Of a stretch of 64,000 nucleotides of DNA, positions 27,718 through 58,085 are shown piece after piece. The DNA lies in the NCBI RefSeq assembly GCF_009834535.1, contig NC_045696.1, positions 13,518,001 through 13,582,000 of the forward strand, written 5' to 3'. The notes under the pieces were generated by a model that was not told where the DNA came from, did not search any database, and saw nothing but the letters and a program-made list of their open reading frames with translations. Position numbers and translations under genes: made by a program. The stretch is from Camelus ferus. Taxonomy: Eukaryota. The number at the start of each line of letters is the position of its first letter. Within the stretch, counting starts at the first letter, position 1.

Positions 27718-29930
27718 ACGTCCATTTAAAAGTAAGCATGGTCCTTAGGTACATGCAGGGTGGTGTTCATGCCAAGCATAGGTCACTCAGAGCCAGGAGG
27801 AGTAAGACATTTGTACTGCATAGAAACAGCACCAGGCCATGCAATTTTACTTTATGCATTCTGGCTCCCATTTAGAAAGAGGAAATCTCATTATCCTGTG
27901 GCATATATTTTAAGGTCAGTGAATCAATGTTGGGTTGTTTTCACTTTGAAAACTACTTTTAAGTGGATGAATGTGATCGCTTGGAGCTTGGATAAATACT
28001 CAGATCTGTGCATAGATGTCTTAAAACATCCTTTTCCACCCCCTTCTGGAATTCCTTTACGTTTGAGTGATGTAGGGGAAAGAAAATGTTATCTTAAGTT
28101 TGTTGTAGAGGAAGCAGGGCTGTTGACTGGCATTGTTCCAGTTTGTCCAGATATGTCTCTTAAAATATATAGAAATAACCAAAATGCCAATAAAGTTAAT
28201 TAGCATTAAAATTGTAACATACACATTGTTTACTTTGTGTTTTTCAAAGGAATTTTGTTACCAGAGTGTGTAAAGCTGACTGCATCCCCCCCCCCCAAAA
28301 AAGTGAGGGGATATTATTAAGTCATGGTGTTATTTTTTGTAAAAGGAAGACTCTGGTACTTTTTAAACGAACAGTCTAAATTATCCAATAAAGTGCACAT
28401 TATCATTATCCTTAGTCTAGAAAAAGACTTCTGCAGTAAAAGTTAGTATTCTAGATCATTTCTTTCATTGAAAATCACATCCCATATACCTAAGGGAAAT
28501 GCATTTCAAAGTAGTCAACCTCTATTTTTTTTCTTTTAAATGAGCATGTTCAGTGACAAGACCTAGGTTCTGAATCTTTGAAAAGAAGTTTGCTAATTGC
28601 AAGTCAGGACTAGTAAAGTTATTGAGAATTTTTAGCCACTCAGGGGTGACATTCAAGAGTGCCCCACACTGTTCTTTGCACATTTTGTCAGTTTCTAGAA
28701 AGGGTATGAGTTAGACGCCCTCAGAGCTCAGGACTTCACTCTAGCTTCCTACAGGGAGAAACTGGAGAAGCTGGGAGCCCAGTCTGGTGTCATGATTTCA
28801 CCTGTGGCTCTTCTCTTTCACTGGGTCTTTAAGAAGCACAATTGGGGAAAAGGGATAAACTGAGATTAAGGGAATAGAAATTGGGTTTAGTTTGCAAGGG
28901 AGAACAATAAGGAAGGCAAAGAGGTATTTTTCAACCCAGAAAGCAGCCCAGGAATCGCTCAGTGCTCCACAGACCAAACTTTGGTGATGAGTGCCGGACG
29001 TTTAGGTACCTGAATCCAAACACTAACAAAGTTCCCTCCTTCCCCCATTTATTTTGCTTGCCTTTTGCTCCCTTTAGACATCCCCAGGATTCCTATATTC
29101 AGTCTTCTAGTATCTTTTTATACCCCTCCCCACCACCCGGGACGGAAATTCAGTCTTCCAGGGAGTTACCTTGACTGGGGACTGGATCAAGCTCAGTGGC
29201 AGGCAGGTGGGGCAGATTGGGGGACAAGGGAGAAACTTAGGTGCCTGCTTACGGCGCTGCCTTGACCGTCCTCCCTACTCCTTGAACCTTCAGCCAGAAG
29301 TCATATCCGGACTCTGCCCCTCTCTAGAGGAATCCTCCAGACTTTGGTGACTCCTCGGGGAAGAACCCAACTTAAGGATGAAAACTTGGAGGATCGGAGC
29401 TAGCAGGCTCTGGGGAGTCCCCGCGTCCCTAGTGGTCCCCACATTCTCCTCCTGAGATCTGGGCATGCCCGCAAGTACCCAAAGCACCGATTGCCAGGGA
29501 CCCCAGCTGCAGACCTAGACTGCACGACGCCCACCGAGGCGCCGGGGAGAGCGCATCTCCGCGCCCAAATCGACTGGCCGCAGCCACGCGCGACCCCACG
29601 CCAGAGCAAGGTGCCAGTCCGAGCGAGCCTGGGCCCCTTGCTCTCTTGCCCGCGTTCCTGGTGCCCAGATTAAAACAGAAAACAAAAACAAAAACAAACC
29701 GCCAACCGTACCCCGCGGGGAAGCCCCGGACTCGCCAGGAGGGAAGCAGTGACGCGGCTGCTGCTCCTTTCCCGGAGCCCCCGGAGCGCGCTGACCTCCA
29801 CTACCCCCAGCCCCTGCCCCCGCGCCAGCGCCCGCTGCCTCACCCGGGACCCGCTGCGCCCGCCCTGGCCGCGGGGAGCGACCACATCTCCCGAGCAGGC
29901 AGCCTGGAGCGCTCCCCGAGGTTCACTCAC

Positions 29931-30049
29931 CGATCCTGAGCACTTGCGGGGCGGTCTCGGGGAGGATGTAAGCAGAGGAAATAGAGGAGTGCCCAGCTGG
30001 TGTCCCTGGTCCAGAGCCTGGGCTGGGCGAGGAGTGTGCGGCGCTCCAT
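29931..30049 (-). CDS. GRIK1: GRIK1 coding exon 1 (glutamate receptor ionotropic kainate 1, GluK1/GluR5; signal peptide), with an apparent +1 frameshift at 29970/29971
   Basis: Translates MERRTLLAQPRLWTRDTSWALLYFLC [extra T] YILPETAPQVLRI-G|gtgagt, matching the human GluK1 N-terminus as I recall it (MEHGTLLAQPGLWTRDTSWALLYFLCYILPQTAPQVLRIG). Good Kozak context (AAAATGG) and canonical donor. Confidence 0.96.
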
Positions 30050-30600
30050 TTTCCCAGCTTCTTAATTCATGCCGAGACCCAGCCGCTGCCGCACGCCCCG
30101 GAGATACAGCCCGCTCGGGCCGGGTCCCCGCCTCATCCTCTCTGGGATGCTCCGCGTTTGCACCCTGCGCGCTCCCCCCGGAAAGAGATCGAGGGAACCG
30201 TCGTGGGAACGCGGAGCTGGCAGGCGACGCTGGCCTCACTCGGGGCTCCTCGCTTCTGCCGCTAGCCCATCACTGCTCCTCTTCCTCCTCCTCCATGGGC
30301 CGCAAACCGCGGAGAAGCAGCGCGCAACCGCTCCCGGAGCCGAGAGACCAGCTGAGGAAAGTTGCTGCCCCAATTTGCGGGAACGTCTCCCTCATTCGTC
30401 CTCTGGTCGGATGAGAAAGTGGTGGTGGAGAGGGTAGGTAGAGGGTGCCACGAGAGAAGGAGGCGTAAAGGAGAAAGAAGGCGAAGGAGAAGGGAGAGGG
30501 TACCGGGCGAGTTGGTGCAGGGGCTCTGAGCAAGCAGGATGAGCTCCAGCAGGTTAACTGGGATGGAACCACGCTCTTGCTTCTCTCAGTTCTTGCTTTC
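30050..30600 (-). other. GRIK1: GRIK1 5' UTR (TSS approximate)
   Basis: GC-rich leader upstream of the ATG within the CpG island. The 5' end is inferred only from a TATA-like element at 30625-30632. Confidence 0.55.
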
Positions 30601-30624
30601 CTCCTCCCCTCGACGGCCCCACCC

Positions 30625-30643
30625 TTTATTTACTGCCCGCCCC
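30625..30643 (-). promoter_or_regulatory. GC box (GGGGCGGGC) adjacent to TATA-like TAAATAAA
   Basis: Minus strand ...GGGGCGGGCAGTAAATAAAGGG..., oriented toward GRIK1. Confidence 0.4.
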
Positions 30644-31534
30644 GGCACGCTGATCCAGACACTCACACAGCCTCACGCGCACGCACACTCTCTCCCTCAA
30701 CTTTGCGCTGTGATGCTGGAAAGTCTATTGAGTAGGGCAGCCTGAGGACAGAAGATTTAACCTGCTGGTCAGAGCAGAGGCGGACTCAGCTGCGGGCTGC
30801 GAATGACAGAGGGGCCTCTTTGGTAATGTCCCTGTGCGCCTGTTAGGGGGTCATAGAGCTGGCCAACTAAGACTCTTCCCATCACTTGATGGAGAATCGC
30901 CATCTCGGACGCCAATATTTCAGAGAATAAAAGAACTCCTGTTTTAACTCTGGCAAAGATGAAGAAAAGGGGAAGGAGGAGGAGGAGGAGGAGGAAGACA
31001 AGGAGAGAAATGAGAAACCTTCAGTACTCTAAGATTAAAGTGGCTTCTTTTTCCTATTCAGACCCGAGATAATCTCTTGTAAATCGCTTCCATTTACACG
31101 CGCAGAACTGGGAAAGAGGCAGCTTCCAGCGCCGCTCCTTTTCTTGGTTTCTTTTGACTGTCACGTTTGAACGCTGGAAGATAGGCTATTTTAGCACTGT
31201 AGGTTTGGAGCCTTTCTCTGTAGAAGGACAAGGACACTTCCCTGGGGAAATCATCAGCTTTTGATCATTTTGGCTTAATTTCCTTTGAGCTTTGTGGGGA
31301 AACGTTCTATATAAATGTTTGTTAGCTCTGCATTAACATTCATAGAGATTTTTTTCCCCTCTAGGTATGGATTTTGGAGAACTGACCTAAACTGAGTTAA
31401 TCCATATGAAAAATATGCCCATAGGCATATAGACCTAGAATAGGAAAGGGTTGCAAAGGAAATAGAATAAAACTTCAGATGTATTCATTCATTCAACAGA
31501 TACTACAGAGCGACTTGTATGTGGTGCCAGACAT

Positions 31535-57669: not shown

Positions 57670-58085
57670 AATTTAACAAATAGTTATTGAGCCTTTTCTT
57701 CTTGTCAGGAACTGTCTTAAATGCCAGAGGTATATAAGTGAACAACAGAACAAGACCCAGCCTTCAAGTATGTAACATTTCATTTGAGTATGGGGTGGGG
57801 ACTGAGGACTGGTGGCTGTACATAAGTAACAAACGAAAATATTGGATAATAATAAGTTCCATACAAAAGGTTAAAGTGGAGAGATGTTATAGAGAATGAC
57901 TATTTTAGTTTGGTGGTTTGAAAAAGCTCTTTCTGGAGAAGTCAGATTTAAGCTGATTTCCACGGGGAAGGTATAGCTCAAGTGGTAGAGTGCATGCTTT
58001 GCATGCACAAGGTCCTGGGTTCAATCCCCAGTACCTCCTCCAAATATAAATAAATAAATTCAATTACCTCCCCCTCATTAAAAAA

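Follow-up and report, generated by a model that had tools for sequence, protein, structure and literature searches.

A single surplus base in GRIK1's first coding exon, GRIK1 being the gene for GluK1, raises the question of whether a conserved kainate receptor has been lost in a camelid, as the sequence taken at face value would suggest, or whether the deposited sequence is at fault. The base lies in a 64-kb stretch of DNA (C1:13518001-13582000), referred to below as the window. In tblastn searches with human and beluga GRIK1, the exon 1 match broke into two frames at the surplus base, with query residues 1-34 placed at 30049-29948 and residues 26-40 at 29973-29929; these searches detected no further GRIK1 exons within the window. 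The minus strand from 30049 reads ...TTC CTC TGC T TAC ATC CTC CCC GAG ACC GCC CCG CAA GTG CTC AGG ATC G|gtgagt. Literal translation of exon 1 gives MERRTLLAQPRLWTRDTSWALLYFLCLHPPRDRPASAQD, and the second frame reads A*IKKLGKWSAAHSS...AYILPETAPQVLRI. When TGCT after codon 25 is taken as one step, the read-through peptide is MERRTLLAQPRLWTRDTSWALLYFLCYILPETAPQVLRI.

With two intron codons added, the read-through peptide served as the query of a protein search, in which 41 of the 47 candidates scored E<=0.01. Thirty-nine of these are named GRIK1 and the other two are unnamed contig ORFs; the best match was to beluga (93% identity, E=2.4e-16). Compared with two annotated camelid GRIK1 proteins (P0057 and P0056), the peptide was identical at 39/39 positions. 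Given the names of the matches, the best E value and the camelid identity, the resemblance of exon 1 to GRIK1 is, by sequence comparison, not due to chance. The window accordingly holds the promoter and first exon of a camelid GRIK1 gene, and with them its 5' end. The features of this region are collected in Table 1.

Table 1. Positions of the features at the 5' end of GRIK1 (numbered from the first letter of the window).
Feature	Position	Strand	Remarks
CpG-island-like GC-rich block with promoter, exon 1 and start of intron 1	29100..30900	.	Only such block in the window
GRIK1 (GluK1) exon 1, coding part	29931..30049	-	119 nt; signal peptide and start of the mature protein
Start codon ATG, context gaaaATGg	30047..30049	-	Matches Met1 in every GRIK1 orthologue retrieved
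TT where orthologous proteins need one base	29970..29971	-	Frame shifts after codon 26 (Cys); from translation, tblastn and camelid comparison
Cryptic GT, CAA|GTGCTC	29942..29943	-	106-nt exon 1, phase 1; restores the literal frame; poor match to the donor consensus
Canonical donor of intron 1, TCG|GTGAGT	29929..29930	-	GT at 29930-29929; strong, intact; from sequence reading
Post-shift frame: TGA (30069-30067), then CTG (30057-30055)	30055..30069	-	From translation of the second frame

The deposited sequence contains one base too many: the coding part of exon 1 measures 119 nt and not 118. The surplus base was originally predicted to be a T at 29970-29971, in the two-T form CTCTGCTTACATC. That there is one extra base was confirmed, and its placement turned out not to be unique. 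The order Cys-Tyr-Ile is regained by dropping T 29971, T 29970 or C 29972, the last being equally possible since TGT also codes for Cys. Both the two-frame tblastn result and the 39/39 camelid identity agree with the claim that codons 27-39 match GluK1 only past one skipped base.

As deposited, the sequence has no uninterrupted frame from the ATG through the signal peptide into exon 2. With the canonical donor and the literal frame, the product ends after 43 residues at a stop 11 nt into exon 2, so that exon 2 is indeed entered out of frame as had been proposed. Should the base be real, the transcript would be expected to undergo nonsense-mediated decay and the allele to be null, yielding no GluK1. 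Several other elements of the original prediction held when the sequence was read and translated anew, namely the exon coordinates, the length of 119 versus 118 nt, the literal peptide, and the intact Kozak context and donor. Translation of the second frame likewise bore out the TGA at 30069, the CTG at 30057 and the lack of an ATG upstream of the shift in the post-shift frame.

The remainder of the gene was located by searching the assembly itself (2.087 Gb in 2,043 sequences) with protein queries. The other GRIK1 exons were found on C1, on the same strand as exon 1, between 13,332,057 and 13,209,361, and exon 2 lies ~216 kb from exon 1. After alignment of all exons and solution of all junctions, exons 2-17 occupied C1:13332053-13209358 on the minus strand and totalled 2,639 nt. 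They form a frame of 878 codons plus stop with no internal stop, no frameshift and no gap. All 16 remaining coding exons and all splice sites are intact, the introns comprising 15 of the GT-AG and one of the GC-AG type. The GC-AG intron follows exon 7 (donor GAG|GCAAGT ... catag|GCT, the donor lying just below 13290354 on C1), the other 15 junctions being GT-AG. The translation of exons 2-17 was identical to human GluK1 at 867/878 positions and to residues 41-918 of camelid P0057 at 878/878. P0057, which equals this translation over exons 2-17, scored above all cut-offs for PF01094, PF10613, PF00497 and PF00060 (ANF_receptor, Lig_chan-Glu_bd, SBP_bac_3 and Lig_chan), the full iGluR architecture. 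The surplus base is thus the sole defect of an otherwise perfect gene.

This result answers the call in the original prediction for a check of the remaining exons, none of exons 2-17 bearing a lesion, and it upholds the view that the locus is not an old pseudogene, a reading ruled out by the intact exons 2-17, the intact splice sites and the 878/878 camelid identity. Exon 2 is preceded by an intact acceptor at C1:13332053. This acceptor reads cag|GAG and is of the NAGNAG tandem type, so that splice forms differing by 3 nt might arise where exon 1 joins exon 2; such an alternative would not mend the frameshift. The protein search returned one exon 1 match, with no second copy or haplotig in the assembly, and a DNA search of the assembly with the adjoining intron stretch matched only itself. 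Exon 1 is therefore single-copy in the assembly and has no second haplotype for comparison.

The original prediction had also proposed a comparison with other camelid assemblies, which was made at the protein level. From the cluster of the human representative (568 members, 40 of them looked at), camelid proteins were taken from among the 15 matches listed. Among these, P0057, with 918 aa, bears the names Camelus dromedarius X3/X5 and C. bactrianus X3, and P0056, with 903 aa, the name C. dromedarius X4, the latter in a UniRef cluster with Camelidae as the common taxon; the dromedary names come from several accessions. Both proteins start MERRTLLAQPRLWTRDTSWALLYFLCYILPETAPQVLRIGG and so have an intact N-terminus, and neither name carries a 'LOW QUALITY PROTEIN' tag, which indicates that other camelid assemblies read exon 1 in frame. 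Residues 1-39 of P0057 equal exon 1 with one base skipped and residues 41-918 equal exons 2-17, whereas the DNA of the window is one base longer after codon 26 and its literal product has 43 residues. The frameshift is thus not common to the annotated camelid GRIK1 proteins, at the protein level, from dromedary, Bactrian camel and the Camelidae-spanning cluster. With these proteins in frame, and with the rest of the gene undamaged, the lesion does not mark an old pseudogene and is not a trait of camelids at large. The intact frames, as seen in proteins, point towards a lesion private to this assembly, although these proteins may all come from camelids of a species other than that of the window.

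Public sequencing runs were compared with positions 28500-31500, and 20 of the 24 listed contain part of this stretch; three are on record as RNA. Fourteen DNA-type runs from several studies and two closely related organisms contained 0.91-0.95 of the sampled words, a share that is not site-specific. It indicates a locus nearly identical across the two organisms and is silent on the T.

The surplus base also lies in an error-prone setting, a GC-rich first exon within a CpG island. In 200-nt windows, GC content is 0.54-0.77 across the GC-rich block and 0.645-0.715 over the exon, with 0.65-0.77 quoted for the island around the site, against a background of 0.31-0.41 in the window. Two stop-free frames cross exon 1, one of 246 aa on the plus strand (29674-30414) and one of 199 aa on the minus strand (29670-30269); both resemble the frames poor in stops that are commonly seen in GC-rich islands, rather than genes.

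We then asked how a frame could be restored if the base were real. A CTG start had been put forward as the sole alternative, and its product (from 30057-30055) lacks the hydrophobic signal core. It is not the only route: a weak in-phase cryptic GT at 29943-29942 would also restore the frame. Use of this donor yields an open, in-frame 914-aa product, MERRT...FLCLHPPRDRPARGIFETVEN..., which equals P0057 from residue 41 on. The product, also given as MERRT...FLCLHPPRDRPARGIFE..., keeps the hydrophobic core WALLYFLCL. The consensus for a splice donor is MAG|GTRAGT. The cryptic site has no consensus G at -1 or +5 and lies 13 nt upstream of the strong TCG|GTGAGT; for these reasons its use is expected to be at most trace. 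It is the only in-phase alternative donor. Reading of the junctions found no compensating shift of a canonical splice site: relative to the donor, GT is absent from -1 and +2, and relative to the exon 2 acceptor, AG is absent from +1 and -2.

Residual consensus indels in GC-rich first exons are common in many assemblies, and for a gene with 98.7% identity between camelid and human, a frameshift allele is a priori a rarer event than such an indel. We consider the surplus base to be most probably a single-base insertion error in the assembly consensus of a GC-rich first exon (probability about 0.72). In that case the true sequence in the animal would be CTC TGC TAC ATC, its gene would specify a normal GluK1 precursor, and other camelid assemblies would read CTCTGCTACATC at the codon. 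This explanation is favoured by the flawless state of the gene's remainder within this assembly, by the complete identity of both exon 1 (39/39) and exons 2-17 (878/878) to P0057, by the in-frame annotations of other camelids and by the position of the site inside the only CpG island of the window. Against it, the change is from T to TT and involves no long homopolymer, and the assembly showed no frame break elsewhere, either across the 2,639 nt that make up GRIK1 exons 2-17 or as abutting split matches among 62 forkhead-domain matches. Twenty-eight of the 62 are complete or near-complete single-exon domains (~7 kb in total), and half-matches are separated by 200 nt or more, a spacing in keeping with introns. 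These ~9.8 kb without frame breaks indicate that the assembly is not ridden with indels and bound its coding indel error rate only below ~3 in 10,000 bases, which is too little sequence to separate an error from a real allele. If the assembly is built from high-accuracy long reads, the prior for an error drops to about that of a real variant. A published case also favours a consensus error: PMC9516821 describes how, in PCDH17, false insertions in a coding exon that is GC-rich and 5'-proximal gave frameshift errors, and names first exons and 5' UTRs as the gene parts hit hardest by assembly problems in vertebrate assemblies. The zebra finch PCDH17 case shares with the present one a small insertion, a GC-rich first coding exon and a conserved neuronal gene intact in its remainder; it differs in that the error was proven by read mapping to two assemblies of one individual, whereas GRIK1 was analysed here from assembly sequence alone.

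An extra T that is real would instead make this a recent loss-of-function allele of GRIK1, heterozygous or homozygous, private or polymorphic in the population. Such a very young null would make a large mammal a naturally occurring GluK1 knockout, in which trace receptor with a remodelled signal peptide might still arise through the cryptic donor. We regard this as unlikely, with roughly the odds of one chance in a handful. The base does stand in the deposited sequence, where no alternative haplotype contradicts the single copy of exon 1. An intact promoter, Kozak context, donor and set of 16 downstream exons is also the picture that a very young allele would present, and the ~9.8 kb of conserved coding DNA has no other frame break. 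Grik1 knockout mice are viable, so a null allele could be tolerated. Against this, the deposited sequence is the one observation of the allele. GRIK1 is under strong constraint, as its 867/878 identity to human attests, the other camelid annotations are intact, and GC-rich first exons are a known site of false indels (PMC9516821). The prior that any single chosen exon of 119 nt in a constrained gene carries a frameshift should moreover lie well below typical consensus error rates. Between an error and a young null allele, the balance leans towards error. Far less probable still is an insertion fixed in the species, which would make GRIK1 either a very young unitary pseudogene or a gene kept alive through the cryptic donor at 29943-29942 or the CTG at 30057. 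The open 914-aa product with its hydrophobic core would suit such survival, and the near identity of the locus in runs of two related organisms (word shares of 0.91-0.95, not site-specific) would suit fixation. The cryptic donor is nevertheless weak and lies only 13 nt from a strong one, and the CTG product has lost the signal core. Exons 2-17 show no relaxation, with every residue identical to the camelid protein, no lesion and every splice site intact; a rough estimate from neutral rates would place any loss no further back than the past few million years. Among the papers listed in the literature searched, judged by titles and opening lines of abstracts, none described the loss of GRIK1 or a frameshift in it for camelids. 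Young loss-of-function alleles and unitary pseudogenes resemble this locus in their early one-base frame-breaking insertion and the premature stop in exon 2; the present case differs from them in having no second lesion and no excess of amino-acid change, and in not being common to related annotated species.

A perfect gene with one extra base in a GC-rich first exon is the pattern behind false gene-loss calls and 'low quality protein' models, and flagging the surplus base keeps the gene from being annotated wrongly as a pseudogene. A real base would mean that a natural GluK1 null allele is present in this animal or its population, which would be of moderate value for kainate-receptor physiology and camelid breeding and would represent no new kind of biology. 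The finding is an ordinary one unless the base proves real.

Three further observations were made alongside this analysis. An apparently unplaced contig, C753, carries a full exon set of a GRIK paralogue (for example at 1462-342655), 56-92% identical to GRIK1 per exon; a large conserved gene may therefore sit outside the chromosome-scale sequences. Of the sampled words from 28500-31500, a mostly non-exonic stretch with promoter, exon 1 and intron, shares of 0.56 and 0.49 were present in two RNA-seq runs labelled 'reproductive system metagenome' (X15 and X16), which suggests that host genomic DNA was carried over or that the CpG island is transcribed across. In the gene desert upstream of GRIK1, a tRNA-Ala with anticodon TGC was called at 57967-58042 on the plus strand by both Rfam (47.3 bits, cut-off 29) and ARAGORN, and may represent either a true tRNA gene or a repeat derived from a tRNA.
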